A DNA stretch of 64,000 nt from Eledone cirrhosa (lineage: Eukaryota), in NCBI GenBank assembly GCA_964016885.1, contig OZ024749.1:19902001-19966000 (forward strand), read 5' to 3'. The notes below the pieces were generated by a model, which did no database searches, had not been told where the DNA came from, and saw nothing but the letters and a program-made list of their open reading frames with translations. Below, piece after piece: positions 1-54,077 of this stretch (positions within the stretch are counted from its first letter, which is position 1; every line of letters starts with the position of its first letter). Made by a program: the position numbers and the translations under genes.

Positions 1-5
1 TTTCC

Positions 6-172
6 TCAGTACGTCCTCATCAGATAAAATACATAAATTGATGTATGACATACCTCAACTGTACTGATGGTTCAATTCCAGTCTTGACTGCCAAGACTGG
101 AATTGAACCATCAGTACAGTTGAGGTATGTCAGACATCAATTTATGTATTTTATCTGATGAGGACGTACTGA
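6..172. repeat. Fold-back palindrome of a PLE pseudo-LTR fragment (81-bp arms, 5-nt loop)
   Basis: 6-86 is the reverse complement of 92-172 with one mismatch. The right arm runs into a hammerhead core. May continue beyond the window start. Confidence 0.9.
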
Positions 173-210
173 AAAAACAGCACAGTACCTCCGATATATA
201 TATAATAAAA
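149..210 (+). ncRNA. Minimal type I hammerhead ribozyme, probably inactivated (GAAA>GATA)
   Basis: TTTTAT-CTGATGA-stem II (GGAcGTACTG...CAGTACcTCC)-GATA-TATATA-TA-ATAAAA. Confidence 0.7.
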
Positions 211-268
211 CATATATTTTGATTATGTGAATGTATCCATTTATTAATATTTTGAATAATATATATAT

Positions 269-1739
269 ATGTATAGAGCTGATACCTCTAACAACTTTGA
301 CATCACAATGGGAGCATCCGATTCATCCCAATTGACAGATTTAATTGGTATCTTTATTTTGAACTCTTTGAATCGGAAAATTCCTCAACTTCGCGGTGGA
401 ATTTATCGTGACGATGGACTCTTTACTATCTTAAATTGCAACATAGTTAACCTTAACCTTAAAGAACAATATACGTAATCTCTTTAACCAACATAACTTA
501 AAAATTGAATTTGATAAAAGCATCAAACTAGCTAATTTCTTGGATGTATCTCTTAATCTTGACACTGGCCTATATTACCCTTACCATAAAAACAATGAGA
601 ACCTAAATTATGTTAATTTTAAATCTAACCACCCCACTAATATTAAGAATGCTATAGTTAGTAATATTGGAAAAAGAATATCTAACCTATCTTCTAATAA
701 AAACATCTTTGATGCTAACGCCAATTACTATAATAACGCGCTTTCTAAAGCCGGTTATCCTGATAAAATCAAATATAGTAAAGAAACAAATTCTAGAAGA
801 TCTTACAGTAGAATAATTAATCATGATCATTCCAATAACTTTAATAAAAGACCTAGATACAAAAACATAATCTGGTATAATGCTCCTTTCTCCATCTCTA
901 TTAATAATAATATTCCTAAATTATTCTTTAGTGCCTTAAATAAATGCTTCCCTCCCTCACATATCTATAGTAAAATATTTAACAAACACACTATAAAATT
1001 TTCCTATTCGACCTCCTCCAACATCTCCAACATTATCTCTAAACACAACAATAAAATACTAAATACTAAATCTCTTCCTTCGAACACTGAATATCATAAT
1101 AATAGTAATAGTACTCCCGACGTCATTGTAAACTCTAGGCTAATTTCTGCAAACCCAAATATGTCAAACGCAACTTCGTTAAATGTTCTTAATCCCATTC
1201 TAAATCAAGAAACTATTATTCCTATCGTAAATAACTTCTCCAATCCAATTCCTTCTATAGATAACACTAGGTCACTTGTTAATAACTCTGTTAATTTCTC
1301 TAATCGCAATTGTAATTGCCCTGTTAAAAATAAATGTCCTCTCAACAACCATTGTCTTGAAAAAAACTTAATCTACGAATGTAAAGTTATAACTGACACC
1401 AATTCCTTTACCTATTTTGGCTCCACTTCCACCTCCTTTAAAGCTCCTCTTTATAATCATCATTCGTCTTTTAAATACCAACTTAAAAGAACCAACACGG
1501 CACTCTCAGAACTCATATGGTCCTTGAAAGACAAAAATATTAACTATAACATCTCTTGGAAGAAGGTTTGTTCTGCTTCTCCATACTTGAATAGTTCTCT
1601 ATCCAAGACATGCAATCTCTGTTTATGTGAAAAATTTACCATTATATCTAATTTAGATTCTATAATAAATAGATGCACTGACTTGTTTTCTCTCTGCTTG
1701 CATAAATTCCACAGAACATTCCATAAAGTATACAGCTAA
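269..1739 (+). pseudogene. PLE RT/GIY-YIG endonuclease polyprotein fragment (frameshifted between 478 and 540)
   Basis: ORFs 269-478 and 540-1739 carry consecutive RT, thumb, linker and GIY-YIG segments. Confidence 0.85.
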
Positions 1740-2750
1740 TATCTAATACTTTACCAATTTAAAATCTTTTTCTCAAAGGCACATATATATATATACATAT
1801 ATATTTCTTTAAAAATATACCCATCTTTCTACCTTATTTCAATGTTATTTATTATACATTATATAATACTAGTTACTCATTCTATATCACTCCTATTTAT
1901 CACTTTCCTTTCTTTCTTTTTTCCTTTTTTCTTTTCTTTTTTTCTTTTTCTTTTAATTTTTAACCTCTAATCTGTACCTTTTCTTCCTAGATACTTCTCA
2001 ATTCTCATTATTACCCACCACAATATATTCTTACTTCATAATATCACCTTGAAAAAATCCTTCGTAAACATAAACATTTTTTTGACGTTAGATTATTCAT
2101 CCTCAATTCATTATTTTTTTCTCCCTTTCATGCTCATCTAACTTATACATATTACACTTATTCATCCACTCTTCTACTTCTTTTCACAATATATCCTTAA
2201 TTACATTACTATTGTTATATTTTTATATTTTTTAATAATACATATCAACAATTTCTTTCCATCACACATATTATTAAACCCTTCAATATACAAACCTTAA
2301 TTTAACATTATTCTAAAATTTTTCTCTTTGTTAATTTTCAAATTCTTTTAATTTATATATTATCTTCCAACAGTTTTTTTTAACCTCTCTATGTAAAACA
2401 ATATATTTTTCTCAGTTATAAAAGCTATCTCTCTCTCTCTATCACCCATCTCTCCTCCTATCTCATCCTTCCTCATTATACTCCTCCCCCTCCACTTTTT
2501 ACTCTCATCTCCTCCTCTTTTTCATCCTTTCCACCCCCCTCAATTTTATCAAAATATCACACATCAATCTAAAACTACTTTTCATATGTTGATTTAAAAC
2601 TGCACTATTCACAAGTGTGTTTTAACCTTCATATCATGTCTCCCTATTTTATCTGACGAAAACGCAAATGTTATTGCATGATGATATTTGTTTTTGAAAT
2701 GCGCATAATAAAATACATGGAACTCTTTTAACCATCTTTTGATCTTATAT
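271..2750 (+). mobile_element. Penelope-like element family 1, copy A (5'-truncated; resembles the Hydra clade)
   Basis: RT motifs FDITMGASDS / GGIYRDDGL, CNC-x5-CPL linker, GIY-YIG (LIYEC...TYFGST), CNLCLCEK. Followed by a long AT-rich 3' region ending in a hammerhead and (TA)n. Confidence 0.85.
2645..2715 (+). ncRNA. Minimal type I hammerhead ribozyme with an intact core
   Basis: Stem I TATTTTAT/ATAAAATA; CTGACGA at 2653-2659; stem II of about 16 bp with a GCAT loop; GAAA at 2696-2699; palindromic TGCGCA; TA cleavage site at 2706-2707. Confidence 0.85.
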
Positions 2751-2754
2751 ATAT

Positions 2755-4292
2755 ACGACACTGACTACCTAGACAGCCATGACCTTAGATGTTTCTGCCC
2801 TAGTAGACCTATAAGAGGTAGACCCCCCACCATAACCTCAATGGCTAAAAAGACTCCCATAGGAAGGTGGATTGGGTGGACCAAAGCTATACGGACCCCC
2901 CAAAACACTGATCAGGTAAGAAAAATGGTCGCACATGCAATAGGGGCTAGTATCAAAACTACCCTAAAGGGCCACATATTTAAGTTCAATGAGAAAATCT
3001 ACACCCAAAATGAGGGAGCAGCCATCGGCGTCAGCATAGCTGGTGATGTTGCCAACCTTTTCATGGTATGGTGGGAAAGGAGACTTAAAGATCTCCTTAA
3101 TGAAAGCTCCATAGACCTCATCATGTACTCTCGTTATGTAGACGATATCAATATAGTTATAAGAACACCCCCACTAGAGAGCACTAACAAGTTTGATTTA
3201 GAACGTAGCACAATGGAAAGCATCCAGCAGATAGCTAATTCCATACACCAGAGTATAACTGTAACTATAGACTTCCCTTCCAAACACCCTAACAATAGAC
3301 TACCTGTATTAGACACAGAACTCTGGATTAACACTATAGACGAGAGAGCCCAAATTCTCCACTCACACTATGCTAAACCCATGGCCTCCAAATACCTGAT
3401 ACTCAAAAACTCAGCAATGTCCAGTAGTGCTAAGTTTAATATTCTGATCGCAGATTTGGTACGAGTGATGAAGAATGTGTCCAGCATGTGCGACCCAACA
3501 GAAATGGAAGGACACATCCAACACTTCATCAACCGCATGCAGTTCTCTGGCTACAACCAAAGAGACAGAGTCAGAGTATACGAAGGAGCCATGGAAAAGT
3601 ATAAGACCCTCATAGAACTGGACATGAAAGGAATTTGCCCACTATACAGGAGCAAATCATGGAATAGCTTAGATAGGGCTAGACATAAGATAGGGAAGGC
3701 CACATCATGGTACGACAACCAGAGATATCAGAGTGTCATGTTTGTGGATGCCACCCCTGGAGGGAAATTAGCTAACCAGTGTAGAAAGGCCCTGAGAAAG
3801 ACCCACTTAAAAATAAAGGTGGTAGAAAAGCCAGGAACCACCATAAAATCCCTGATCAGCAAAACCTACCCTTTTAAGAAAACCCACTGTACTAATAGGA
3901 AATGTATCATATGTAAGGTGAACCCCCGGATAAACTGTAAAACCAGAAACGTAGTCTATAGCATAAGATGTACAGAGGGTACTTGCAGAAACATGACAAC
4001 AACATACATAGGTGAGACAGCTCGTAGCATAGGTGAAAGGATAGACCAACACTGGGGGGAACTAAAAGGACGAAAAAACGGGTCAGTACTATACGAACAT
4101 GCTAGACAACAACACGACGGTAACATAGACAACATAGAAATTAGAATAATATCTAAACATAGGAATGACCCAGCAGATAGGCAAATCAGAGAGGCCAGTG
4201 AAATAGAAATTAGAAGACCAAAGCTAAACAGAAAGAATGAGTGGAACAACAACAACACCCAAACAAACAACACTGATCTAAGAGAAGTATAA
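2755..4292 (+). CDS. PLE reverse transcriptase-GIY-YIG endonuclease (N-terminally truncated)
   Basis: GAAIG, YSRYVDD, Cys linker (C-x4-C-x2-C), VVYSIRC...YIGETARS..ER..H...H...H. Confidence 0.9.
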
Positions 4293-4427
4293 ATAAGTAA
4301 ATAAAATTAAATAAAATAAGATAAATAAATACATACACAAGCACATAAACACACACTAGTCACCCAGCAGACACAACACTATACACACTAGTCACACATC
4401 ACACATAACACTATACACACACGCAAA

Positions 4428-4522
4428 CGCATGCGCAAAGAAGACAAAATAAAATAAGATAAACAAACAAGCAAATAAATAAATAAATATATAGACAGAC
4501 TGAACAAAAAAAAAAAATGGCG
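4428..4522 (+). promoter_or_regulatory. Putative pLTR promoter: NRF1-like CGCATGCGCA and YY1-like AAAATGGCG
   Basis: Motifs at 4428-4437 and 4514-4522; same order in the family 3 pLTR despite little other similarity. Confidence 0.5.
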
Positions 4523-4562
4523 TAGACATACAACACAACAGGAGGAACAATGAATATAACAC

Positions 4563-4600
4563 CACTGACGATGTTGCAGATGTGCAACGAAAGATTTATG
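4563..4600 (+). ncRNA. Hammerhead-like core with weak stem I
   Basis: CTGACGA-T-GTTGCA(GATG)TGCAAC-GAAA-GATT-TA; only about 2 bp of stem I. Confidence 0.55.
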
Positions 4601-4817
4601 TAAATTATGTAAACTATATATATGTGTTTGTGTCTATATTGTATCTGTATTATTTTTGACCGCCGGTCAGTCAATGGCAACATTGAGGACCGAGTAAGTT
4701 AGATCGCAGATATATATATATAAAAGACAGCGAGAAGCGAAAACCAACCAAACAGTGAGTGTGTTCTGTTATTAATTCTGGCAATATTACGCAAATATGA
4801 CCCTCCCCAAATATAAC

Positions 4818-4848
<31 letters not shown>

Positions 4849-5070
4849 GAGGTGAGTTTTATTGTAGTACAATGAAATGCGCATAATAAAATACATGGAA
4901 CTCCTTTAACCATCTTTTGATCTTATATTATATATATATATATATATATTCATTAGTTAAGCAAAACAATACCACAAATTTCACAAGGAAGACATTATTA
5001 AAAGATTGTCAACATATTTTAGTTTGATGTAAGGAATGTAGAGAATATTAATAATAATATTAATAATAAT

Positions 5071-5197
5071 TGTTTCTACTTTAGGCACAAGGCCAGCAAT
5101 TATCCAGTGCATTACTGGAACTTTATTTTATCGACCCCGTAAGGATGAAAGGCAAAGTCAACCTCGGCGGGATTTGAACTAAGATCGTAAAGGGACG
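5071..5197 (-). mobile_element. 5'-truncated tRNA-derived SINE
   Basis: B-box GTTCAAATCC, body GCCTTTCATCCTTACGGGGTCGATAAAATAAAGT.CCAG; ~23-bp AT-rich TSD at 5048-5070 and 5198-5220. Confidence 0.75.
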
Positions 5198-5227
5198 TTA
5201 TTAATAATATTAATAATAATAATGTCC

Positions 5228-5347
5228 GTTTACAATTGTTTCGCTACTCCATATAATATTTCTGGATCAGATGACTATATATCATAATTGATCTGGTTCA
5301 GTTGAAAATAATTAACATATTTAAAAGACAGAGCGGCTCATCGGAAC
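5228..5347 (-). ncRNA. Minimal hammerhead ribozyme with long stem II (left inverted pLTR)
   Basis: GTT-CCGATGA-long hairpin-GAAA-CAATTG-TA-AAC on the minus strand. Confidence 0.7.
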
Positions 5348-5758
5348 TTCAAAGGAATATAAATTAAAATAATGAGAGAATGTTACATAATATAATGTTT
5401 CATATATTGGTTTTTACTATGGTGTCTTGGTTGCATCAGTTGTCAGCCATAATCAAGCAGTATTCATCTGTCGAGGCTGCATTGTGTGAGATCTACCTAT
5501 GGGTAACAAGATGGCTACCAAAGGGCATATTTACCTTACTAATTAGAGGGTGGTTTCAGGGGAAGTAACTCCTCGAGAGATTAGAAATTTTGGGTGTTTA
5601 TAGGTAAGTGCTAATTTTTTAATTTTGTTTAATTGAGAGACAATGTAGGGGAGGTAACTTATAATTATCGAGTTGTTCATAGCAATTTAACTTATTAGCT
5701 ACAAGTAAAATTAGCAACAACTATAAAAAAATTTAAAGATAGCCACCTCTTACATGTT

Positions 5759-7610
5759 ATGTCTGACAAAACTAAAAATCTATACACCATGACTCCTGAA
5801 ACTTACAACTCTTTCCTTCTTAAAGAACTCAATAAAAACTGTAAAAAAACTACACCCTCCAGTGTAAACGTACTTAACCGAAAAGCCCAGGCTTTGGTTA
5901 AGGACTTGCATCTGGATAGATTTACCCACCCTTATGTACCAACAACCCCAAGGTTCTCTCTCAAGGATCACAAGCCAAACTTCATAGAGAACCCATCTAT
6001 TAGACTCATAAGCCCAACCACATCTGACCTGGGCCGCATCAGTAAGAACATCCTTGATAGGATAGTCCCTGGGCTACGGGATGATACCACCTACAAGTTG
6101 TGGTCCAACACCGGCCAAGTCATTAGATGGTTCTCCGATCTAAGGTCCAAGCAATCTATGAGGTTCATCCAATTTGACATAGACGGCTATTACGCGTCAA
6201 TAACCCCAAAACTGCTCAACAAAGCTTTAGCCCTAGGCACCACCAACTCGGACATAACCAATAATGAGATTAACATCATACTTATGGCTAGGCAGACTAT
6301 CATTGAATTCAACGGAGCACTCTGGACTAGAAAAGATAGAACAGACAACTTTGACATTACGATGGGCTCAAGTGACTCCGCGCAAATCAACGATTTAGTT
6401 GGGATTTACCTATTACGTAACATCAGAGCCGAAATCCAACCCTTGCAAGGCGGAATATACAGGGACGACGCCCTATTTGCAGTCCACAATTGCACTAATC
6501 GGGGAATCGATTTGCTAAAGAAACAATTACATAGATTCTTTAAAAATAACGGTTTCTCTATCACCATCGAGCCGAACCATAAAGTAGTAAACTTCCTAGA
6601 CGTCACCCTGGATCTCAACAATAACCTATATTATCCTTACCACAAACCAGGTGAAATACTCACATATATTAGCCCACACTCTAACCACCCACCGGCAGTC
6701 ATCAGAGCAGTAATCAAATCTATCTCCTATAGGATCTCAATGCTATCAGAAAATGAGGAGATATTTATAAACCACGCACAATATTATAATAAGGCTCTCT
6801 CTGAATCTGGTTATGAACAATCAATTTATTACATACCTAAATGCCATAACACAGCAATTCACCATAATAAACTTAACACTAGAACTAGAAATACCTTAGC
6901 ATATAGCCAGATTCGCCGGAATTTTAGCAGTAACAGCACCTATACAGGGAACTTTAATGGTGGCAGCGGCCTGCTCCCCACTCCAAGTAGCAAACTAAAA
7001 ATCAACCCTAGAATAGGAATGAGAAATGAGATGACAAATAACAAACCCCCAGGTAATAATAACCCTAGGAAGGCCCCTACCAACTCCACTAGAACCCCTA
7101 GAAGGAATAGACCTAGAAATATCACCTGGCTTAACCCCCCATTCTCATCTAATCTAGCCACTAATATTCCCAAACGCTTCTTCTCTATCCTATCTAAACA
7201 TCCCCCCCCCCCTCCAACCATAGATATTACAAACTCTTTAATAAAAATAACATTAAAATCTTATTCTCCACAACACCTAACCTAGCTAGCCACATCGCAT
7301 TCAGTAACCATTATAAGCTAAGACAGTATAACTCCCACACCGCGGTACCACCACCCCTATCAAATGCACCATGCCACTACACCAATAATTACTCTAGTAG
7401 CACACCTCCCCCATCTAATCCTTCTAGCACGGACCTACCGCTTAGGTTAAACAACCCTACTCTCACTAACCGCAGAAGCAACTGCAACTGCCGTTACCCC
7501 AATACATGCCCATTAAATGGACACTGTCTGACACCCAACATAGTCTATAGGTGCACGGTTAAGACTGCTTCGAATACCAGCTCTTATATCGGGTCTACCT
7601 CTAACCCTTT
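5759..7610 (+). pseudogene. PLE RT (FDIDGYY, FDITMGSSDS, IYRDDAL) plus partial GIY-YIG; frameshift at the poly-C near 7202
   Basis: 508-aa ORF homologous to 269-1739; CNCRYPNTCPLNGHCL and IVYRC..YIGST follow in another frame. Confidence 0.88.
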
Positions 7611-7910
7611 AACTATGAACAACTCGATAATTATAAGTTACCTCCCCTACATTGTCTCTCAATTAAAAAAATTAAAAAATTAGCACTTAACTATAAACAC
7701 CCACAATTTCTAATCTCTCGAGGAGTTACTTCCCCTGAAACCACCCTCTAATTAGTAAGGTAAATATGCCCTTTGGCAACCATCTTGTTACCCATAGGTA
7801 GATCTCACACAATGCAGCCTTGACAGATGAATACTGCTTGGTTATGGCTGACAACTGATGCAACCAAGACACCAATATATGGAACATTATATTATGTAAC
7901 ATTCATTATT

Positions 7911-8008
7911 GCCGAGGTTGACTTTGCCTTTCATCCTTACGGGGTCGATAAAATAAAGTACCAGTAATGCACTGGGTAATTGCTGGCCTTGTGCCTAAAG
8001 TAGAAACA
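7911..8008 (+). mobile_element. 5'-truncated SINE, same subfamily as 5071-5197
   Basis: Differs from the other copy at 2 positions over 98 bp; ATTATT TSD at 7905-7910 and 8009-8014. Confidence 0.75.
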
Positions 8009-8034
8009 ATTATTTTAATTTATATTCCTTTGAA

Positions 8035-8154
8035 GTTCCGATGAGCCGCTCTGTCTTTTAAATATGTTAATTATTTTCAACTGAACCAGATCAATTATGA
8101 TATATAGTCATCTGATCCAGAAATATTATATGGAGTAGCGAAACAATTGTAAAC
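8035..8154 (+). ncRNA. Minimal hammerhead ribozyme with long stem II (right pLTR)
   Basis: GTT/AAC stem I; CCGATGA (U4C variant); GCCGCTCTGT/ATGGAGTAGC base of stem II; GAAA at 8140-8143; palindrome CAATTG; TA. Confidence 0.7.
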
Positions 8155-8480
8155 GGACATTATTATTATTAATATTATTATTATTATTCTCTACAATCCT
8201 TACATCAAACTAAAATATGTTGACAATCTTTTAATAATGTCTTCCTTGTGAAATTTGTGGTCTTGTTTTGCTTAACTAATGAATATTTACAGCTCTGCGC
8301 ACCTAACTTCTGCATGAACCCAGCCACCTAGCTGCTTTCTACTGCAGCATATTGCACATTGAGCACATGCCTTTATGCTTTGGCTTCTAACTAATTCACC
8401 AATCTCTCCTCTCCTATCTCCATCTCTCTCTTTAAGATTGGTTACTCTTGAACTGTGTATATATATATATATATATATAT

Positions 8481-9966
8481 CATCATCATCATCATCATCA
8501 ACGTTTAACGTCCATGTTCCACGCTTGCATGGGTTTGGACGGGGGTAGTCCCACTTGAGGCAAGAGTGATTGTCTTGCTCGCATAGGACTGTCTGGCAGG
8601 TTTTCTACAGTTGGATGCCCTTCCTAACACCAACCACATTTACAGTGTGGGTCTGGGAGGTTTTTACCGTGTTGCCTACACGGCCACATTACAGCGTGGA
8701 CTGTGTTATTTTGTCGTGACACCTACACGATCTCATTTGTTTCGGCCTGGATGGCGCGGCACCAACATAACTTTACATAGAACGGGGTGGTGTGGATGAG
8801 GTGGGGGTGGTGGCGGGACAGGGTGTATTTTGTTAGAGATGCCTACTGGCAAGGCGGGTCTTCTCTGTTACTGCCAAAGGTCTCGGTCCAGTGACATTGT
8901 CTTGGAGAGGTGTAAGTGTGTGAGGTCGGAGTTTATCAGCTCGTCCCAGGTTTTTCTAGGTCTGCCTATTCCGTGGCTACCGTCTATCTTTATTGCCCTG
9001 CACTTTGTTATACAGCTATCGACTTTCATGCGCATCACGTGTCCATACCAACGTAGCCTTCTCTCGAGTAAACAACATCTGATCCCTCTTATCTCTAATT
9101 TTTTCCTTAGTTCGTTTATGCTTTGCCGTTCACGTATATTACTGTTACACATCCAACGGAGCATGCAAGCTTCGTTCCTCTCTAGTCTGCGTATATCCTC
9201 TGCACACAATGCCCAGGTCTCACTGCCATGCAACATTGCTGTTCGTATGCAGGCATCGTACAACCTGCCTTTCATTTTTAGGGAGAACCCTTTAGCAGCT
9301 AATAGTGGTATAAGCTCTCTGAACTTTTTCCAACCAGTTCTGACTCTAGCTACAGTACTTTCAGAGCACCCTCCCCCACTGCTGATTTTATCGCCCAGGT
9401 AACGGAAGCTGTCCACTATTTCTATAGAACCCTCTGCGCAATTGAAAGAGCTAGTATTTTGTGGGCACTTGCTGCTACTTATTGCACCAGAACACCGGCC
9501 ACATGTAAAATCTATGTTCTTAGTTAGCTTACCTGTGATCCCACTACATCTTTTATGCACCCATACTTTGCATTTAGGACATAAAATGGAGTTTCTACCT
9601 ACGCCTTTCCTACACACCGAGCACGACCATTTCCCAGAAGGGACCGCCGCCTTGTTTTCTTTCCTACAAACTAGAACTTTGGTCTTAGCCAGGTTAATTT
9701 TAAGTCCTTTTGACTCTAGGCCGTGCTTCCATGTTTGGAATTTCTTCTCTAGCTCGGCCATTGATTCCGCTATGAGTGTCAGGTCGTCTGCGTATAGGAG
9801 TTCCCATGGGCAGCCTGTCTTGAACTCCTCTGTTATAGCCTGAAGGGCAATAATAAATAGTAGGGGGCTGAGAACAGAGCCCTGATGGACGCCAACTTTT
9901 ACGCTAAACTCTTCACTATATTCGTTGTTAATTCTAACCTTGCTGACTGTTTCTTTATACATGGCT

Positions 9967-9970
<4 letters not shown>
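8481..9970 (-). mobile_element. RTE-clade LINE family A (subfamily A1), 5'-truncated
   Basis: GVHQGSVLSPLLF, LLYADD, PHD-like insert, GSETW, RRLRWYGH, GRPRKTW; (GAT)n tail; (TA)n at both ends. Confidence 0.93.
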
Positions 9971-10039
<69 letters not shown>

Positions 10040-10389
10040 CATATATATATAACATATATAGTGTGAAGTGTGATGTACTGAATAAACTTTAATTTTTATA
10101 AAATGACCTTCCTAAACCATGTGGTGATTGTTAATGACTGCCAAGGAGAAGGGGAGATAATTCCAAGAAACTATGTGTGTGTGTGCATGTAACTATACAT
10201 ATACATACACTGACATCAACACACATACTCACAGATTGTGACACACATACACATACTGATACATACATCAGCACACTCACACACACAAACATCAATACAC
10301 TTGTGTATACTTGTGTGGCTAGAAAAATTCCCATTTCTGTTTGAAATGAAAATAGTGAGAATGAATCAATATTTCATAAAGTCTCTATG

Positions 10390-14750: not shown

Positions 14751-15597
14751 ATAGCATAAGATGTACAGAGGGTACTTGCAGAAACATGACAACAACATAC
14801 ATAGGTGAGACAGCTCGTAGCATAGGTGAAAGGATAGACCAACACTGGGGGGGAACTAAACGGACGAAAAAACGGGTCAGTACTATACGAACATGCTAGA
14901 CAATAACATGACGGTAACATAGACAACATAGAAATTAGAATAATATCTAAACATAGGAATGACCCAGCAGATAGGCAAATCAGAGAGGCCAGTGAAATAG
15001 AAATTAGAAGACCAAAGCTAAACAGAAAGAATGAGTGGAACAACAACAACACCCAAACAAACAACACTGACCTAAGAGAAGTATAAATAAGTAAATAAAA
15101 TAAAATAAAATAAAATAAGATAAATAAATACATACACAAGCACATAAACACACACTAGTCACCCAGCAAACACAACACTATACACACTAGTCACACAGCA
15201 AACATAACACTATACACACACGCAAACGCATGCGCAAAGAAGACAAAATAAAATAAACAAACAAGCAAATAAATAAATAAATATATAGACAGACTGAATA
15301 AAAAATGGCGTAGACATACAACACAACAGGAGGAAAAAATATAACACCACTGACGATGTTGCAGATGTGCAACGAAAGATTTATGTAAATTATGTAAACT
15401 ATATATATGTGTTTGTGTCTATATTGTATCTGTATTATTTTTGACCGTCGGTCAGTCAATGGCAACATTGAGGACCGAGTAAGTTAGATCGCAGATATAA
15501 AAGACAGCGAGAAGCGAAAACCAACCAAACAGTGAGTGTGTTCTGTTATTAATTCTGGCAATATTACACAAATATGACCCTCCCCAAGTATAACAAT
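14748..15597 (+). mobile_element. 3' fragment of PLE family 2 (GIY-YIG end + pLTR with a hammerhead core at 15350-15385)
   Basis: Near-identical to 3957-4820 with the same terminus, followed by a TA-rich tract. Confidence 0.92.
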
Positions 15598-18918: not shown

Positions 18919-19467
18919 ATATTAGGTACTTCAGTAGATTCATGGTTTACTATATGTATATATATATATATTTCGTTTCTGAATTTGTTTAGCAAGATTC
19001 TTTATCTGAAAACGTGTGTTGAAACCGATATTGTTATACTTTGGGAGGGTCATGTTGCCAATAAGAAACACACACACCAGTTGCTTTCACTTCAATTTAT
19101 TATAATAAATTTATAAATTACCGGTTGGTTGGTTGGTTCCACAACTAGATGATTGTTTATATATTGTCAAAGTTCTTTCGTCACACATTTTGTGCCTCTC
19201 CTTTGTTCTGTCCTACGCCATCAAGATGGCGTAGGACAGAACAAAGGTGAGGCACAAAAACTAAGAAAAGAATCCCCAGTCACTGAAGAAGTCACATAAT
19301 GTGTGACGAAAGAACTTTGACAATATATAAACAATCATCTGGTTGTGGAACCAACCAACCAACCGGAAATTTATAAATTCCTAAATTTATGAATTTATTA
19401 TAATAAATTGAAGTGAAAGCAACCAGTGCGTGTGTTTCTTAATGGCAACATGACCCTCCCAAAGTAT

Positions 19468-19837: not shown

Positions 19838-22800
19838 CTTTACAGAGTGTACTGGGAGCATAGTTTCTATGGTTGGATGCCCTTCCTAACACCGACCACT
19901 TTACAGAATGTACTGGGAGCATAGTTTCTATGGTTGGCTGGTCTTCCTAACACCGACCACTTTACAGAGTGTACTGGGAGCATAGTTTCTATGGTTGGCT
20001 GGTCTTCCTAACACCGACCACTTTACAGAGTGTACTGGGAGTATAGTTTCTCTGATTGGCTGGTCTTCCTAACACCAACCACTTTACAGAGTGTACTGGG
20101 AGCATAGTTTCTATTATTGGCTGGTCTTCCTAACACCAACCACTTTACAGAGTGTACTGGGAGCATAGTTTCTATTATTGGCTGGTCTTCCTAACACCGA
20201 CCACTTTACAGAGTGTACTGGGAGCATAGTTTCTATGTTGGCTGGTCTTCCTAACATCGACCACTTTACAGAGTGTACTGGGAGCATAGTTTCTATTATT
20301 GGCTGGTCTTCCTCACACCGAGCACTTTACAGAGTGTACTGGGAGCATAGTTTCTATGGTTGGCTGGTCTTCCTAACACCAACCACTTTACAGAGTGTAC
20401 TGGGAGCATAGTTTCTATGGTTGGATGCCCTTCCTAACACCAACCACTTTACAGAGTGTACTGGGAGCATAGTTTCAATGGTTGGCTGGTCTTCCTAACA
20501 CCAACCACTTTACAGAGTGTACTGGGAGCATAGTTTCTATGGTTGGCTGGTCTTCCTCACACCGACCACTTTACAGAGTGTACTGGGAGCATAGTTTCTA
20601 TGGTTGGCTGGTCTTCCTCACACCGACCACTTTACAGAGTGTACTGGGAGCATAGTTTCTATGGTTGGCTGGTCTTCCTAACACCAACCACTTTACAGAA
20701 TGTACTGGGAGCATAGTTTCTATGTTTGGCTGGTCTTCCTCACACCGACCACTTTACAGAGTGTACTGGGAGCATAGTTTCTATGATTGGCTGGTCTTCC
20801 TCACACCGACCACTTTACAGAGTGTACTGGGAGCATAGTTTCTATGGTTGGCTGGTCTTCCTCACACCGACCACTTTACAGAGTGTACTGGGAGCATAGT
20901 TTCTATGGTTGGCTGGTCTTCCTAACACCAACCACTTTACAGAGTGTACTGGGAGCATAGTTTCTATGGTTGGCTGGTCTTCCTCACACCGACCACTTTA
21001 CAGAGTGTACTGGGAGCATAGTTTCTATGGTTGGCTCGTCTTCCTAACACCAACCACTTTACAGAGTGTACTGGGAGCATAGTTTCTATGGTTGGCTGGT
21101 CTTCCTAACACCAACCACTTTACAGAGTGTACTGGGAGCATAGTTTCTATGGTTGGATGCCCTTCCTAACACCGACCACTTTACAGAGTGTACTGGGAGC
21201 ATAGTTTCTATGGTTGGCTGGTCTTCCTAACACCGACCACTTTACAGAGTGTACTGGGAGCATAGTTTCTATGATTGGCTGGTCTTCCTCACACCGACCA
21301 CTTTACAGAGTGTACTGGGAGCATAGTTTCTATGGTTGGCTGGTCTTCCTAACACCGACCACTTTACAGAGTGTACTGGGAGCATAGTTTCTATGGTTGG
21401 CTGGTCTTCCTAACACCAACCACTTTACAGAGTGTACTGGGAGCATAGTTTCTATGATTGGCTGGTCTTCCTCACACCGACCACTTTACAGAGTGTACTG
21501 GGAGCATAGTTTCTATGGTTGGCTGGTCTTCCTAACACCGACCACTTTACAGAGTGTACTGGGAGCATAGTTTCTATGATTGGCTGGTCTTCCTAACACC
21601 AACCACTTTGCAGAATGTATTGGGAGCATAGTTTCTATGGTTGGCTGGTCTTCCTAACACCAACCACGTTACAGAGTGTACTGGGAGCATAGTTTCTATG
21701 ATTGGCTGGTCTACCTAACACCATCCACTTTACAGAGTGTACTGGGAGCATAGTTTCTATGATTGGCTGGTCTTCCTAACACCGACCACTTTACAGAGTG
21801 TACTGGGAGCATAGTTTCTATGGTTGGATGCCCTTCCTAACACCGACCACTTTACAGAGTGTACTGGGAGCATAGTTTATATGATTGGCTGGTCTTTCTA
21901 ACACCAACCACTTTACAGAGTGGACTGGGAGCATAGTTTCTATGGTTGGCTGGTCTTCCTAACACCGACCACTTTACAGAGTGTACTGGGAGCATAGTTT
22001 CTATGATTGGCTGGTCTTCCTAACACCAGCCACTTTGCAGAGTGTACTGGGAAAATAGTTTCTCTGATTGGCTGGTCTTCCTAACACCGACCACTTTACA
22101 GAGTGTACTGGGAGCATAGTTTCTATGGTTGGCTCGTCTTCCTAACACCGACCACTTTACAGAGTGTACTGGGAGCATAGTTTCTATGGTTGGCTCGTCT
22201 TCCTAACACCAATCACTTTACAGAGTGTACTGGGAGCATAGTTTCTATGGTTGGCTCGTCTTCCTAACACCAACCACTTTACAGAATGTACTGGGAGCAT
22301 AGTTTCTATGATTGGCTCGTCTTCCTAACACCAGCCACTTTACAGAGTGTACTGGGAAAATAGTTTCTCTGATTGGCTGGTCTTCCTAACACCGACCACT
22401 TTACAGAGTGTACTGGGAGCATAGTTTCTATGGTTGGCTGGTCTTCCTAACACCGACCACTTTACAGAGTGTACTGGGAGCATAGTTTCTATGGTTGGCT
22501 CGTCTTCCTAACACCAATCACTTTACAGAGTGTACTGGGAGCATAGTTTCTATGATTGGCTGGTCTTCCTAACACTGACCACTTTACAGAGTGTACTGGG
22601 AGCATAGTTTCTATGGTTGGCTGGTCTTCCTAACACCGACCACTTTACAGAGTGTACTGGGAGCATAGTTTCTATGATTGGCTGGTCTTCCTAACACCAA
22701 TCACTTTACAGAGTGTACTGGGAGCATAGTTTCTATGATTGGCTCGTCTTCCTAACACCGACCACTTTACAGAGTGTACTGGGAGCATAGTTTCTATGAT

Positions 22801-25800
22801 TGGCTCGTCTTCCTAACACCGACCACTTTACAGAGTGTACTGGGAGCATAGTTTCTATGGTTGGCTCGTCTTCCTAACACCGACCACTTTACAGAGTGTA
22901 CTGGGAGCATAGTTTCTATGGTTGGCTCGTCTTCCTAACACCGACCACTTTACAGAGTGTACTGGGAGCATAGTTTCTATGGTTGGCTCGTCTTCCTAAC
23001 ACCAACCACTTTACAGAGTGTACTGGGAGCATAGTTTCTATGATTGGCTGGTCTTCCTAACACCAACCACTTTACAGAGTGTACTGGGAGCATAGTTTCT
23101 ATGGTTGGCTGGTCTTCCTAACACCGACCACTTTACAGAGTGTACTGGGAGCATAGTTTCTATGGTTGGCTCGTCTTCCTAACACCGACCACTTTACAGA
23201 GTGTACTGGGAGCATAGTTTCTATGATTGGCTGGTCTTCCTAACACCAACCACTTTACAGAGTGTACTGGGAGCATAGTTTCTATGGTTGGCTGGTCTTC
23301 CTAACACCAACCACTTTACAGAGTGTACTGGGAGCATAGTTTCTATGGTTGGATGCCCTTCCTAACACCGATCACTTTGCAGAGTGTACTGGGAGCATAG
23401 TTTATATGATTGGCTGGTCTTTCTCACACCGACCACTTTACAGAGTGTACTGGGAGCATAGTTTCTATGGTTGGCTGGTCTTCCTAACACCAACCACTTT
23501 ACAGAGTGTACTGGGAGCATAGTTTCTATGGTTGGATGCCCTTCCTAACACCGATCACTTTGCAGAGTGTACTGGGAGCATAGTTTATATGATTGGCTGG
23601 TCTTTCTCACACCGACCACTTTACAGAGTGTACTGGGAGCATAGTTTCTATGGTTGGCTGGTCTTCCTAACACCAACCACTTTACAGAGTGTACTGGGAG
23701 CATAGTTTCTATGGTTGGATGCCCTTCCTAACACCAACCACTTTACAGAGTGTACTGGGAGCATAGTGTCCATGATTGGCTGGTCTTTCTCACACCGACC
23801 ACTTTACAGAGTGTACTGGGAGCATAGTTTCTATGGTTGGCTGGTCTTCCTAACACCAACCACTTTACAGAGTGTACTGGGAGCATAGTGTCCATGATTG
23901 GCTGGTCTTTCTCACACCGACCACTTTACAGAGTGTACTGGGAGCATAGTTTCTATGGTTGGCTGGTCTTCCTAACACCAACCACTTTACAGTGTACTGG
24001 GAGCATAGTTTCTATGGTTGGCTGGTCTTCCTAACACCGACCACTTTACAGAGTGTACTGGGAGCATAGTTTCTAAGGTTGGATGCCCTTCCTAACACCG
24101 ACCACTTTACAGAGTGTACTGGGAGCATAGTTTCTATGGTTGGCTGGTCTTCCTAACACCGACCACTTTACAGAGTGTACTGGGAGCATAGTTTCTATGA
24201 TTGGCTGGTCTTCCTAACACCGACCACTTTACAGAGTGTACTGGGAGCATCGTTTCTAAGGTTGGATGCCCTTCCTAACACCGACCACTTTACAGAGTGT
24301 ACTGGGAGCATAGTTTCTATGGTTGGCTGGTCTTCCTAACACCGACCACTTTACAGAGTGTACTGGGAGCATAGTTTCTATGGTTGGCTGGTCTTCCTAA
24401 CACCGACCACTTTACAGAGTGTACTGGGAGCATAGTTTCTAAGGTTGGATGCCCTTCCTAACACCGACCACTTTACAGAGTGTACTGGGAGCATAGTTTC
24501 TATGGTTGGCTGGTCTTCCTAACACCGACCACTTTACAGAGTGTACTGGGAGCATAGTTTCTATTATTGGCTGGTCTTCCTAACACCAACCACTTTACAG
24601 AGTGTACTCGGAGCACAGTTTCTATGATTGGCTGGTCTTCCTCACACCGACCACTTTACAGAGTGTACGGGGAGCATAGTTTCTATAATTGGCTGGTCTT
24701 CCTAACACCGACCACTTTACAGAGTGTACTGGGAGCACAGTTTCTATGGTTGGCTCGTCTTCCTAACACCGACCACTTTACAGAATCTACTGGCAGCATA
24801 GTTTCTATGGTTGGCTGGTCTTCCTAACACCAATCACTTTACAGGGTGTACTGGGAGCATAGTTTCTATGGTTGGCTGGTCTTCCTAACACCAATCACTT
24901 TACAGAGTGTACTGGGAGCATAGTTTCTATGGTTGGCTCGTCTTCCTAACACCAACAACTTTACAGAGTGTACTGGGAGCATAGTTTCTATTATTGGCTG
25001 GTCTTCCTAACACCAACCACTTTACAGAGTGTACTGGGAGCATAGTTTCTATGATTGGCTGGTCTTCCTAACACCAACCACTTTACAGAGTGTACTGGGA
25101 GCATAGTTTCTATTATTGGCTGGTCTTCCTAACACCGACCACTTTACAGAGTGTACTGGGAGCATAGTTTCTATGGTTGGCTGGTCTTCCTAACACCGAC
25201 CACTTTACAGAGTGTACTGGGAGCATAGTTTCTATTATTGGCTGGTCTTCCTAACACCGACCACTTTACAGAGTGTACTGGGAGCATAGTTTCTATTATT
25301 GGCTGGTCTTCCTAACACCAACAACTTTACAGAGTGTACTGGGAGCATAGTTTCTATTATTGGCTGGTCTTCCTAACACCGACCACTTTACAGAGTGTAT
25401 TGGGAGCATAGTTTCTATGATTGGCTGGTCTTCCTAACACCGACCACTTTACAGAACGTACTGGGAGCATAGTTTCTATGATTGGGTTGTCTTCCTAACA
25501 TCGACCACTTTACAGAGTGTACTGGGAGCATAGATTCTATGGTTAGCTGGTCTTCCTAACACCGACCACTTTACAGAGTGTACTGGGAGCATAGATTCTA
25601 TGGTTGGCTGGTCTTCCTAACACCAACAACTTTACAGAGTGTACTGGGAGCATAGTTTCTATTATTGGCTGGTCTTCCTCACACCGACCACTTTACAGAA
25701 TGTACTGGGAGCATAGTTTCTATGATTGGCTGGTCTTCCTAACACCGACCACTTTACAGAGTGTACTGGGAGCATAGATTCTATGGTTGGCTGGTCTTCC

Positions 25801-27901
25801 TAACACCAATCACTTTACAGAGTGTACTGGGAGCATAGTTTCTATGGTTGGCTGGTCTTCCTAACACCAACCACCTTACAGAGTGTACTGGGAGCACAGT
25901 TTCTATGATTGGCTGGTCTTCCTAACACCGACCACTTTACAGAGTGTACTGGGAGCATAGTTTATATGATTGGCTGGTCTTCCTAACACCGATCACTTTA
26001 CAGAGTGTACTGGGAGCATAGTTTCTATGGTTGGCTCGTCTTCCTAACACCGACCACTTTACAGAGTGTACTGGGAGCATAGATTCTATGGTTGGCTGGT
26101 CTTCCTAACACCGACCACTTTACAGAGTGTACTGGGAGCATAGTTTATATGATTGGCTGGTCTTCCTAACACCGACCACTTTACAGAGTGTACTGGGAGC
26201 ATAGTTTATATGATTGGCTGGTCTTCCTAACACTGACCACTTTACAGAGTGTACTGGGAGCATAGTTTATATGATTGGCTGGTCTTCCTAACACCGACTA
26301 CTTTACAGAGTGTACTGGGAGCATAGTTTCTATGGTTGGCTCGTCTTCCTAACACCGACCACTTTACAGAGTGTACTGGGAGCATAGTTTCTATGATTGG
26401 CTGGTCTTCCTAACATCAACCACTTTACAGAGTGTACTGGGAGCATGGTTTCTATGGTTGGCTGGTCTTCCTAACACCGACCACTTTATAGAGTGTACTG
26501 GGAGCATAGTTTCTATTATTGGCTGGTCTTCCTAACACCAACCACTTTACAGAGTGTACTGGGAGCACAGTTTCTATGATTGGCTGGTCTTCCTAACACC
26601 GACCACTTTACAGAGTGTACTGGGAGCACAGTTTCTATTATTGGCTGGTCTTCCTAACACCAACCACTTTACAGAGTGTACTGGGAGCATAGTTTCTATG
26701 ATTGGCTGGTCTTCCTAACACCGACCACTTTACAGAGTGTACTGGGAGCATAGATTCTATGGTTGGCTGGTCTTCCTAACACCGACCACTTTACAGAGTG
26801 TACTGGGAGCATAGATTCTATGGTTGGCTGGTCTTCCTAACACCGACCACTTTACAGAGTGTACTGGGAGCACAGTTTCTATTATTGGCTGGTCTTCCTA
26901 ACACCAACCACTTTACAGAGTGTACTGGGAGCACAGTTTCTATTATTGGCTGGTCTTCCTAACACCAACCACTTTACAGAGTGTACTGGGAGCACAGTTT
27001 CTATTATTGGCTGGTCTTCCTAACACCAACCACTTTACAGAGTGTACTGGGGGCATAGTTTCTATGATTGGCTGGTCTTCCTAACACCAACCACTTTACA
27101 GAGTGTACTGGGAGCACAGTTTCTATTATTGGCTGGTCTTCCTAACACCAACCACTTTACAGAGTGTACTGGGAGCACAGTTTCTATTATTGGCTGGTCT
27201 TCCTAACACCAACCACTTTACAGAGTGTACTGGGAGCACAGTTTCTATTATTGGCTGGTCTTCCTAACACCAACCACTTTACAGAGTGTACTGGGAGCAC
27301 AGTTTCTATTATTGGCTGGTCTTCCTAACACCAACCACTTTACAGAGTGTATTGGGAGCACAGTTTCTATTATTGGCTGGTCTTCGTAACACCAACCACT
27401 TTACAGAGTGTACTGGGAGCACAGTTTCTATTATTGGCTGGTCTTCCTAACACCAACCACTTTACAGAGTGTACTGGGAGCACAGTTTCTATTATTGGCT
27501 GGTCTTCCTAACACCAACCACTTTACAGAGTGTACTGGGAGCACAGTTTCTATTATTGGCTGGTCTTCCTAACACCAACCACTTTACAGAGTGTACTGGG
27601 AGCACAGTTTCTATTATTGGCTGGTCTTCCTAACACCAACCACTTTACAGAGTGTACTGGGAGCACAGTTTCTATTATTGGCTGGTCTTCCTAACACCAA
27701 CCACTTTACAGAGTGTACTGGGAGCACAGTTTCTATTATTGGCTGGTCTTCCTAACACCAACCACTTTACAGAGTGTACTGGGAGCATAGTTTCTATGGT
27801 TAGCTGGTCTTCCTAACACCAACCACTTTACAGAGTGTACTGGGAGCACAGTTTCTATTATTGGCTGGTCTTCCTAACACCAACCACTTTACAGAGTGTA
27901 C
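19838..27901. repeat. 61-bp satellite array (~132 copies) derived from the RTE 3' UTR
   Basis: Monomer TTTACAGAGTGTACTGGGAGCATAGTTTCTATGGTTGGCTGGTCTTCCTAACACCGACCAC; register shifts 1 nt per 60-nt line. Confidence 0.97.
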
Positions 27902-28204: not shown

Positions 28205-28379
28205 GAGGATAGTAGACGTGTTTCGTATCGCTCCCTGATTTGGATTTTTACCTGCTAATTTTGTGAGTGGATTTTTTTGAATTCTTTTGTATAATTAACT
28301 GTAACCCCTAGTCTGGGACTCTAGACGTCGGGTAAATATATTTTCACCCCTTTTGGGGTGAAAAATAAATATTTCAGAA

Positions 28380-30227
28380 ATGTTTATCGATATCGTTGAT
28401 AACGATATCGTCGAAAACGATATCGCCATATTGGAAGCGAACGCCACGCCGACCAAAAAAGCAAGCTGGAAAGAGGGTACAACAGTTCAAACTGTTGAAC
28501 AACCCCTCCTCTCCAATGAAAAAAAGAATTTCAATTCAAATGAAAAAATTAATTTTCAAGAAAAAAATAACACCACAAATAAGGAAACCAACAACATTAC
28601 AACAACAAACAAAGACAAAATTTCTTTTGCCCAAACACTTAGGAGAGCCACGGAATACAAAGCCATTGACATCACGAACGCCAAGGAAAATTTGCTAGAG
28701 GCTAGAAAATACGTATCTTTTGGGGAGGATGGTTCTTTTACGATCAACTCCCCAGAAGAAGTACGTCAACAGATTTACAAGAATACCGTAAGCTACAGAA
28801 CCATAACCAACGAAACGAGAAAGCCAGCGCAATTGACCGAAAGTCAAATCGAGCTGGTTCTGAAAGAAATTAAAAATGACATACTCTTTATTCAAAGAGG
28901 AAAGCTGTATGCCAGCATTATGGTCCGAATGAAGGACGAAATGCTGGCTCAGAAATATTCGGTGGCACCTATAGTGTCACCACAATACACCTTCTTCCCC
29001 ACATATAAAGGAAGAAGAACACAAAGGATAAGAATGTGGAGCCCTACGCCAGTAATTAACATCTGGTCCGTCCTAACAGGATTTACCGACCTAGATAAGG
29101 ACATACTAATTTCAGCAGGGGAGTCCACCAGTGGACTGTTCGGGGGGAAAAGTCTGGAGGTTCTCTTACAGATGACACCTGAGAGAATCTCCGGAATACC
29201 CGACCGAGTGCTACTGGATGGGCGAACCTACATACATATCACAGTGGAAGGCAGGAGACCCTCATGTTACCACTGCGCTGGCAGAGGTCACCTGAGGACG
29301 GCCTGCCCTCTACTAACAACTAAAAAACCACTGCTACAAACACCACAACAACAACAAAAACAACCAGCACCACCATCACAAAAACAACAAAATACACTAC
29401 CATCTCCACCAGAACAACAAAAACCAACAACACCACCACCACCACCACCACCACAACAACAACAACATCAACAACAGCTCAAGAAAACAACCCAAAACAC
29501 GGTCCCACCCAGCCCCACCCCACAGAATACAAATACAAAAACAGTTCATACACAACCCGGAGATATACCCCTCCCCTCCAATACGGAAGAGGAGCTCATA
29601 TCGTCGGAAGACGAGGGGGCTCCCTTCCAAAAAGTGAAAAGAAAAAAACGTACACACACCACACAAACAAAAATAACCCCACCTGACAACACAACACAGA
29701 CAATAAAACGCAAACTCACTCAACAACAACAAGCAAAAACAAACACAACAACACAAAAACTCTACACATACATAAACAAAAACAATGAAAACCTAACTTT
29801 AAAAATAGAAACCAACCCTTCGATACAAACCGAAGGGCCGAATTTCGTAACGGCAATGGGGCTCCCTAACCGGAAAATGGTGAAAATCCCACTTGACATT
29901 TTCAAAACTTTAAAAGACATGTACCCTGAGGACGTGGGCCCACCCTGCACCAGGCCACTCAACCGCGTCCTCCTGAAAGGTTTTCCCCTCCCCTCCTCAA
30001 ACACCCACACAACTCCAAAGATCCCAACCCCTCCACACACTAATACCCCCACACCACCACAAACCACCACCCACCCATCAACCCCTCCATCAGCCCCATG
30101 GAAACTGAGCGACCCGAACCCCGGGACGCAGAGAGGTAAGTGCCTCTTTCTTTGCCACCAATATGGCTGTCTTAAGAGTAGGTTGTCTAAATGCGCGTGG
30201 CCTGGGCTCACCTTGGAAGCAAGCTAA
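28380..30227 (+). CDS. ORF1 gag-like nucleic-acid-binding protein
   Basis: CYHCAGRGHLRTAC zinc knuckle; long Q/P/T-rich tail; the true 3' end may be the TAA at 30137-30139. Confidence 0.82.
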   Translation: MFIDIVDNDIVENDIAILEANATPTKKASWKEGTTVQTVEQPLLSNEKKNFNSNEKINFQEKNNTTNKETNNITTTNKDKISFAQTLRRATEYKAIDITNAKENLLEARKYVSFGEDGSFTINSPEEVRQQIYKNTVSYRTITNETRKPAQLTESQIELVLKEIKNDILFIQRGKLYASIMVRMKDEMLAQKYSVAPIVSPQYTFFPTYKGRRTQRIRMWSPTPVINIWSVLTGFTDLDKDILISAGESTSGLFGGKSLEVLLQMTPERISGIPDRVLLDGRTYIHITVEGRRPSCYHCAGRGHLRTACPLLTTKKPLLQTPQQQQKQPAPPSQKQQNTLPSPPEQQKPTTPPPPPPPQQQQHQQQLKKTTQNTVPPSPTPQNTNTKTVHTQPGDIPLPSNTEEELISSEDEGAPFQKVKRKKRTHTTQTKITPPDNTTQTIKRKLTQQQQAKTNTTTQKLYTYINKNNENLTLKIETNPSIQTEGPNFVTAMGLPNRKMVKIPLDIFKTLKDMYPEDVGPPCTRPLNRVLLKGFPLPSSNTHTTPKIPTPPHTNTPTPPQTTTHPSTPPSAPWKLSDPNPGTQRGKCLFLCHQYGCLKSRLSKCAWPGLTLEAS

Positions 30228-51666: not shown

Positions 51667-51824
51667 ATACTTTGGGAGGGTCATGTTGCCAATAAGAAAC
51701 ACACGCACCAGTTGCTTTCACTTCAATTTATTATATATTTATAAATTTATAAATTTACAAATCTACAAACTTATAAATTTCTGGTTGGTTGGTTGGTTCC
51801 ACAACCAGATAGTTGTTTATATAT

Positions 51825-54026: not shown

Positions 54027-54077
54027 TGGGATAGAAGAAAGGGGGGGCACAGAAGCAAAGAGGGGGGGGGGGTCCCC

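Follow-up and report, generated by a model that had tools for sequence, protein, structure and literature searches.

The window analyzed here, a 64,000-nucleotide stretch of the Eledone cirrhosa genome, contains four hammerhead ribozyme motifs that share a layout and carry three different palindromic hexamers (N6) at the position of helix III. An initial annotation had assigned them to a single PLE family and proposed that each subfamily's palindrome acts as a self-pairing code. The question raised by this locus is hence whether helix III discriminates between subfamilies or needs only to pair with itself. The analysis favors the latter with good probability: the motifs would be minimal type-I hammerheads in the pseudo-LTRs (pLTRs) of three PLE insertions, with a helix III that likely forms between copies and is self-complementary, but not subfamily-specific.

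Hammerhead cores and PLE insertions in the window

The four cores, their layout and their N6 were all confirmed in the sequence, and the cuts predicted after positions 2707 (core 2) and 8151 (core 4) are correctly placed. Core 1 (149-210, + strand) presents a CTGATGA box, TATATA as N6, a predicted cut after 204 and a helix II of 3 and 6 bp flanking a C-C mismatch. The GA(A/T)A layout initially described holds for the cores, but the GATA of core 1 is a private A14U mutation, with GAAA present in 99 of 100 subfamily relatives among the matches listed and in the inverted twin of this core. The twin is a fifth core, on the - strand, of which positions 1-29 lie inside the window and the remainder, with an intact GAAA-TATATA-TA, just upstream of its start. 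Core 2 (2645-2715, +), in the 3' pLTR of element A, combines CTGACGA, a long helix II, GAAA and TGCGCA, and the CUGANGA, GAAA and UH boxes are exact in this core and its family. Core 3 (5228-5347, -; predicted cut after 5231) has the same letters as core 4 (8035-8154, +): CAATTG, GAAA, a 95-nt helix II region and a CCGATGA box whose U4C change is likewise found in most family C copies among the matches listed. Both are enclosed, letter-identical, in an inverted repeat (5199-5373 versus 8183-8009, 99.4%). Since they constitute the inverted pLTR pair of one element, element C, the four cores are real but only three are independent. Helix I closes the motif in all three, with 6 bp in core 1, 8 bp in core 2 and 3 bp in core 4.

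Six cores beyond those first noted were identified in the window. Besides the twin that crosses position 1, family B contributes two of them and family D three. The first family B core (4561-4601, +; core position 4565) has N4 GATT and a helix I of only 2 bp, and a second identical copy lies at 15346-15386 (core position 15350). Family D is represented by a core with a non-palindromic N4, GAAC (19275-19325, +; core position 19283), and by two inverted twins with N4 GGAC, at 51822-51872 (-; core position 51864), downstream of a PLE ORF (52310-53431, -), and at 54075-54125 (+; core position 54083). Rfam at gathering threshold returned zero matches across the window, and single-strand folding z-scores were weak (-2.6, -0.6 and +1.3).

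Core 1 belongs to a short 5'-truncated PLE end of stem-II class S1b (1-262), an inverted duplication starting 82 bases before the window, which is self-inverted at 90% from -82 to 262 and at 97% in the stretch from 6-172. As a separate short insert, it falls outside the family to which it had been assigned. The possibility that cores 1 and 2 were the two pLTRs of element A was rejected, with only a few short matches of 10-23 bases between them. Element A (274-2755, +) is a 5'-truncated PLE with a long 3' UTR/pLTR, whose open frame (447-1739, +) encodes the C-terminal half of an RT, a CxC-C-C linker and a GIY-YIG-like endonuclease. Its protein shows 90-95% amino acid identity to ORFs of 775-808 aa located between direct pLTRs, and locus L051 matches 1139-2752 without a break, spanning element A into core 2. 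The 808-aa open frame of L146 contains DKT, YRDD, a CNC-C-C linker and LIY..YFG, placing RT and C-terminal GIY-YIG in a single ORF. Atlas neighbors at 0.95-0.98 contain HTH_animal, GIY-YIG and RVT_1, and a Pfam scan gave zero hits for element A, element C and L146.

Element B (2712-4836, +), located behind element A, is a PLE of another clade with a YVDD RT, a CxxxxCxxC linker and VVY..YIG; its RVT_1 match (E 0.001) lies under the Pfam cut-off, as does that of the ORF at 52310, which is 67% identical to element B in amino acids. A family A tail-only insertion (4811-4949) consists of an inverted +53..+136 tail followed by a direct piece beginning 12 bases 5' of the predicted cut. Element C comprises an inverted 5' pLTR copy (4943-5682, -), a coding region (5699-7683, +) with two frames (5699-7285 and 7198-7683), a YRDD RT and an incomplete endonuclease, and the 3' pLTR (7613-8289, +) that partners the inverted copy. 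Elements A and C, both YRDD, are presumably 'Nematis-like'. Their proteins are 44% identical over 106 residues and blastn found no match between their 3' UTRs, results at odds with a single PLE family. Partial tandem pLTRs, inverted 5' copies and an optional tail, all PLE hallmarks, are present.

Self-complementarity of helix III across the genome

The frame of cores 1 and 2 matched 39,017 sites genome-wide and a second core pattern matched 1,457, whereas the reversed patterns matched none in either case, indicating that the cores do not arise by chance. Overall, exact patterns locate no fewer than 63,000 hammerhead sites in this one genome (39,017 + 17,893 + 5,527 + 1,457). Among the 39,017, the most frequent N6 were TGCGCA (20,201), TATATA (7,966) and TATGTA (7,462), followed by TRCGTA (628); the first 100 of these 628 listed include 74 TACGTA and 26 TGCGTA, which scale to ~465 and ~163. 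Perfect palindromes account for ~73% of the 39,017, whose N6 was assigned in all but 2,498, compared with 1.6-2.1% for a random hexamer, and self-pairing words, G·U included, for ~93%. The anticipated palindrome enrichment and the self-pairing constraint on the helix III of PLE pLTR hammerheads were thus borne out, but the perfect palindrome, present in all four cores, is not universal genome-wide, as the large TATGTA class shows. In family C, CAATTG is present in 31 of 35 cores, from two subfamilies. Family D (17,893 matches) presents N4 GAAC in 79 and GGAC in 18 of the first 100 listed, words that lack a Watson-Crick center and are not strictly self-complementary.

TATGTA, which self-pairs through G·U, outnumbers its DNA mirror TACATA by 7,462 to 61, counts that inverted twins enter twice, and the excess amounts to about three expanded master lineages versus none for TACATA (one-sided p ~0.125). 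The predicted homoduplex energies differ accordingly in sign (UAUGUA -2.2 versus UACAUA +2.6 kcal/mol). Because the G·U-pairing word expanded while its mirror did not, the census lends comparative support to the notion that helix III may be selected as RNA. For TGCGCA, the two mirror mutants are about equally frequent (TGCGTA ~163, TACGCA 201), and TGCGTA, a G·U step toward TGCGCA, has no expanded lineage. An origin of TATGTA by post-insertion CpG decay of TACGTA was discarded, the mirror product being 122-fold rarer, and TACGCA was rejected as a subfamily state, its 201 copies being scattered across all TGCGCA stem-II classes.

Helix II also presents evidence of conservation as RNA. In the A clade, 104 of 130 cells are paired in register, versus 37-73 when slid, and two-sided changes occur at pairs 1, 2, 3, 5 and 6, in a test with one natural copy for each of 13 classes. 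In the best register A9 is not followed by an extra base, and pair 4 is recurrently mismatched (C-C in 9/13 classes). The first pair is A-U in 8/13 classes, G-U in 3/13 and G-C in 2/13, departing from G10.1-C11.1; in the window it is G-C in cores 1 and 4 and A-U in core 2. Family C presents one-sided repair only, and helix I, being fixed by the searches, showed no covariation in the A clade.

These data bear on the idea that the palindrome is a DNA-level feature, either a protein binding site or a (TA)n microsatellite bias. In its favor, the genome is TA-rich, TATATA is a word typical of microsatellites and recurs in several families, and (TA)n terminates the elements. N6 nevertheless occupies a fixed position between GAAA and TA in every family, neither TGCGCA nor CAATTG is a TA run, and the mirror-word asymmetry and helix II covariation also speak against this idea, which we consider highly improbable.

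N6 distribution and pairing specificity

Pairing at the RNA level would proceed between copies. By itself, A-N6-U would be unable to close a stable hairpin (predicted monomer helix III, +2.4 to +4.7 kcal/mol), and two copies could pair antiparallel to form a shared 8-bp helix III. The usual partner would be the second pLTR of the same element in a tandem transcript, or another RNA from the same master. The same N6 is present at both pLTRs of full-length elements, in 5/5 direct pairs examined (3.3-3.9 kb apart, with an ORF between). Because such a partner is identical by copying, any self-pairing sequence would work and no code would be needed; with a helix III that likely requires two copies to form, self-complementarity is what selection would maintain. 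N6 could then drift one transition at a time, passing through G·U states (TATATA, TATGTA, TACGTA), with rare moves to more distant words (TGCGCA, CAATTG), and the weak cross-pairing of distant families would be a by-product of divergence. At L156, a coding sequence is flanked by inverted pLTRs with TACATA in both cores, so a non-pairing copy may have been mobilized once.

Under a code, selection on each palindrome would instead have restricted activation to pairs of like copies. By prediction, the three hexamers of the window are orthogonal, with homoduplexes at -3.2, -10.5 and -6.4 kcal/mol and heteroduplexes at +5.7, +6.9 and +7.7 kcal/mol. Unlike cores lie 0.36-3 kb apart on the same strand in the window (149/2645) and at L147, L148, L152, L153, L160 and L161, so mixed transcripts could exist, and TGCGCA is restricted to one 99/99 clade of the endonuclease tree. 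This tree was built from 35 endonuclease rows, each no shorter than 95 aa and no more than 2.6 kb from a core; it lacks S5, S6 and S4b, the one S1b row forms a long branch whose placement is uncertain, and its TACGCA, TGCGTA and TACATA rows were chosen as mutants.

The N6 are, however, common to several subfamilies. TATATA occurs in stem-II classes S1b, S3, S5, S6 and F, and in another family that differs in stems I and II, and TATGTA is common to S1a, S3 and S4b, in a table of 195 cores that is biased by loci chosen for their N6 and was used for presence only. One 100/99 clade contains both words, and S3 rows, counted by eye among the first 100 of 39,017 listed, have TATGTA in 7 cases and TATATA in 5. 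TGCGCA itself spans at least three subfamilies, with endonucleases 68-93% identical to that of element A. Furthermore, TATATA, TATGTA and TACGTA form a predicted cross-pairing chain: the TATATA x TATGTA (-3.2 kcal/mol) and TACGTA x TATGTA (-4.7 kcal/mol) heteroduplexes are predicted to match or exceed the TATGTA homoduplex in stability. One N6 per subfamily without cross-pairing was therefore not observed and, since many subfamilies use the same arm, this arm is not a private code. Of the proposed code, what stands is the predicted lack of cross-pairing among the window hexamers; selection for it in each subfamily appears improbable.

A broader form of discrimination, which we regard as unlikely, is that helix III sorts co-resident PLEs into compatibility groups (TGCGCA; the TATATA-TATGTA-TACGTA chain; CAATTG; the 4-nt words), with cleavage in trans or in mixed transcripts within groups only, and that the 20,000-copy TGCGCA clade gained by leaving a shared group. 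If such groups operated in cells, transposons would have a simple means of telling self from non-self at the RNA level, which would bear on the function of PLE hammerheads. On this reading the genome would also preserve, on a large scale, the natural evolution of a ribozyme dimer helix by way of G·U steps. The natural N6 series is a ready panel for comparing homodimer and heterodimer cleavage. A literature search, with the contents of Lunse et al. outside its scope, found no paper on Penelope hammerhead heterodimers.

Putative cleavage and related systems

The layout, the pLTR position, a covarying helix II and a predominantly self-complementary N6 are found together in one clade. By analogy, the motifs are likely self-cutting RNAs of an already described kind, present by the tens of thousands in PLE ends; cleavage, possibly protein-assisted, is assumed from other PLEs. 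Cervera and De la Pena (2014, PMC4209133) already described hammerheads with a palindromic helix III, cleavage as dimers and more than one palindrome per genome, with both UA-CGCG-UA and UA-GGCC-UA in Aedes aegypti and an alignment consensus given as 'GAAAN Palind NU H'. In the available portion of that work, min-HHRs resemble the motifs reported here in their type-I layout, conserved core, pLTR location, palindromic helix III and dimer model, in their thousands of mostly truncated copies with several families per genome, and in inverted pairs a few hundred bases apart. They differ in having G10.1-C11.1, where the first helix-II pair in E. cirrhosa is mostly A-U; the absence of an extra base after A9 and the recurrent pair-4 mismatch in the A clade, the large TATGTA class, and the U4C change and long helix II region of family C also set E. 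cirrhosa apart. A matching sequence was absent from the alignment rows compared. Short-stem-III hammerheads (Lunse, Weinberg and Breaker 2016/2017), as summarized in parts of PMC6765202 and PMC6466107, are likewise PLE-associated with a palindromic stem III loop, and need a tandem arrangement for dimer cleavage. The available portions of bioRxiv 10.64898/2026.07.22.740005 and PMC8490949 contain no further information on palindromes.

A possible, if doubtful, alternative is that the hammerhead fold is mainly a protein-bound RNA structure, serving as an RT-endonuclease handle or dimerization site, with slow, protein-assisted cleavage that is dispensable for insertion. Of 77 family A end alignments, none ends at the predicted cut (0/77) or starts at +1, and 27 of them extend past the cut to +53 and 29 to +136, suggesting that templates span the cut site. 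The Poseidon element PAc of Anolis (Frangieh et al. 2024, PMC11167929) likewise has a pLTR hammerhead, with genomic copies whose 3' ends fall at two positions downstream of the cut; in the sections available, cutting occurred in vitro only with protein, insertion persisted in catalytic mutants and RNA-seq ends were absent from the cut. Low in vitro activity is also recorded in the accessible part of PMC4209133. Conversely, the core boxes are kept in every family seen, although the searches require them, and cut-spanning templates would equally fit circular or more-than-unit RNA. With regard to pairing, a protein-bound structure is compatible with a self-complementary helix III formed between copies.

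For cephalopod Penelope hammerheads, the literature search returned only Craig et al. 2021 (PMC8557442). The Neptune and Nematis PLEs described in the portion available share with the E. cirrhosa elements an RT with C-terminal GIY-YIG, a cysteine-rich linker, partial tandems, an inverted 5'-truncated copy, (TA)n targets, a hammerhead in the pLTR and an optional tail, which spans ~83 bases in family A (+53 to +136) versus 30-40 in those elements.

Hammerhead cores in the stacked PLE insertions

Re-reading of the sequence (G000:C9:19902001-19966000, in an assembly of 3.0 Gb) confirmed the positions of the four minimal hammerhead cores proposed in the initial annotation, at 149-210(+), 2645-2715(+), 5228-5347(-) and 8035-8154(+); an Rfam search of the window at the gathering threshold returned no match. 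All four are present, but only three are independent, since 5228-5347(-) is an identical copy of 8035-8154(+) and both lie within inverted repeats (4943-5682 and 7613-8289) flanking a single element. Cervera and De la Pena 2014 (PMC4209133) describe minimal hammerheads with palindromic helix III in Penelope-like elements (PLEs); a genome can hold several such families, and the dimers are weakly active. The supplement gives UA-CGCG-UA and UA-GGCC-UA in its alignment for Aedes aegypti and the consensus 'GAAAN Palind NU H'. The dimer model is restated in two reviews (PMC6765202, PMC6466107). The window motifs are real, abundant and of a kind already known.

Bases 1-8289 consist of stacked PLE insertions. 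Core 149 is carried by a short insert that contains an inverted duplication, which begins 82 bases ahead of the window start and extends to 262. Its GATA is a private mutation, because the twin core spanning position 1 and 99 of the first 100 listed of its 969 relatives read an intact GAAA; 90 of the same 100 present TATATA as N6, the helix III word between GAAA and TA. Core 2645 sits in element A (274-2755), within its 3' UTR; the assignment follows from a genomic copy (L051) that aligns unbroken from the ORF through the tail. Relatives of element A with 90-95% protein identity present open frames of 775-808 aa with direct pseudo-LTRs (pLTRs) on either side, and the open frame at one locus (L146) encompasses DKT, YRDD, a CNC-C-C linker and a GIY-YIG-like pair. 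Pfam scans of the element A, element C and L146 proteins returned no match; GIY-YIG and RVT_1 are annotated on Atlas neighbours. No significant similarity was detected between elements B (2712-4836) and C (5699-7683). Given that the A and C proteins share 44% identity over 106 aa, that their 3' UTRs are unrelated and that core 149 belongs to a separate insert, the single 'PLE family 1' originally named must be replaced by three insertions that represent two families within a single broad clade.

Self-pairing of helix III words

A genome-wide tabulation of N6, as the initial annotation had proposed, used the frame that core 149 shares with core 2645, with helix I fixed, N6 free and exact flanks required, match counts being lower bounds in which inverted twins count twice. 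The frame returned 39,017 matches (reversed-pattern control, 0): TGCGCA 20,201, TATATA 7,966, TATGTA 7,462, TRCGTA 628 (74 TACGTA and 26 TGCGTA, by eye, among the first 100 listed), TACGCA 201, TACATA 61 and 2,498 outside these words. N6 was enriched for palindromes, but its words were not subfamily-specific. The notion that N6 is always a perfect palindrome holds for the four window cores but not genome-wide, where strict palindromes make up ~73% of N6 (2% by chance) and ~93% self-pair once G·U is included (6% by chance). The constraint on helix III is self-pairing, not perfect palindromy. In the element C family (1,457 matches), CAATTG was found in 31 of 35 cores read.

Two further PLE families with four-base words in the window depart from the strict palindrome rule. 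Family B (5,527 matches) carries GATT, which self-pairs through G·U only, in 97 of the first 100 listed; its window cores, at 4561-4601 and 15346-15386, have a 2-bp helix I. Four same-strand family B cores spaced by ~4,147 bases (G000:C1:14381867-14394342) suggest, from their arrangement, a young tandem array. Family D (17,893 exact matches; window cores at 19275-19325, 51822-51872(-) and 54075-54125) carries GAAC in 79 and GGAC in 18 of the first 100 listed. Its helix III is A-G-(AA or GA)-C-U, so that dimerisation would require tandem A-A or G-A pairs. GAAC was also found in older family B copies.

As DNA, TATGTA and TACATA mirror each other, and only UAUGUA can self-pair as RNA, via two G·U pairs (predicted homoduplex -2.2 vs +2.6 kcal/mol for UACAUA). 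TATGTA is read as a founder state because it outnumbers its mirror by 7,462 to 61, while the mirror-image mutants of TGCGCA occur in similar numbers (TGCGTA ~163, TACGCA 201). It is present in three stem-II classes of the A clade (S1a, S3, S4b), and with three lineages against none (one-sided p ~0.125) its excess is only suggestive of RNA-level constraint. One insertion (L156) carries TACATA at both inverted cores. The predicted cost of monomeric helix III is +2.4 to +4.7 kcal/mol. Across 13 classes, 104 of 130 helix II cells are paired in register, against 37-73 when slid, with two-sided changes present. Pair 4 of A-clade helix II (149-210, 2645-2715 and relatives) is mismatched, as C-C in 9/13 classes, amid covarying pairs; it is possibly a tertiary or protein contact.

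Helix III words and subfamilies

The hexamer had been proposed as a self-pairing code for each subfamily. Cross-pairing among the window words TATATA, TGCGCA and CAATTG is predicted to be absent, and unlike cores occur on one strand 0.36-3 kb apart. N6 is identical at both ends in 5/5 direct pLTR pairs, for which copying alone suffices and which makes a partner available in cis. The hexamer is not, however, a code for each subfamily. TATATA is common to classes S1b, S3, S5, S6 and F and to a family with different stems, TATATA and TATGTA are both shared among classes and both occur in the S3 clade (support 100/99), and TGCGCA is spread over at least three subfamilies in a 99/99 clade. Furthermore, the predicted heteroduplexes TATATA x TATGTA (-3.2) and TACGTA x TATGTA (-4.7) equal or exceed the TATGTA homoduplex in stability. 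A looser form of the idea, in which helix III words fall into a few compatibility groups, is improbable. A literature search, largely outside subscription journals, found no paper on heterodimer specificity. Additional hammerhead families lie outside the window (L019, L023, L154, L082): one has CTGC/GCAG as helix I together with TATATA, and another has a 2-nt AT helix III.

3' ends and neighbouring repeats

Family A ends gave 77 alignments, of which 27 finish at +53 and 29 at +136 downstream of the predicted cut. No alignment finishes at the cut itself or starts at +1, although only 4 extend to the ORF start. Templates therefore span the cut, as with the PLE tail. The family has two discrete 3' ends (e.g. 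2755 and 4811-4876), with an optional tail of ~83 bases (+53 to +136), longer than the 30-40 given for other PLEs in Craig 2021 (PMC8557442), which also describes PLE structure. For the Anolis Poseidon hammerhead, PMC11167929 reports cleavage only with protein, and hammerhead mutants still inserted in vitro.

A satellite array at 19838-27901 contains 132 copies of a 61-base unit (94% matches); the unit is similar to a section of a dispersed repeat (8602-8659 and 55077-55134). Three consecutive long frames (621, 796 and 366 aa) at 28362-33600 presumably represent, by their motifs, ORF1 and the endonuclease-RT of a non-LTR retrotransposon, and we take 8868-10088(-), 55460-57238(-), 58802-60255, 61161-61945 and 62876-64000, also by motifs, to be pieces of other LINE-like reverse transcriptases.
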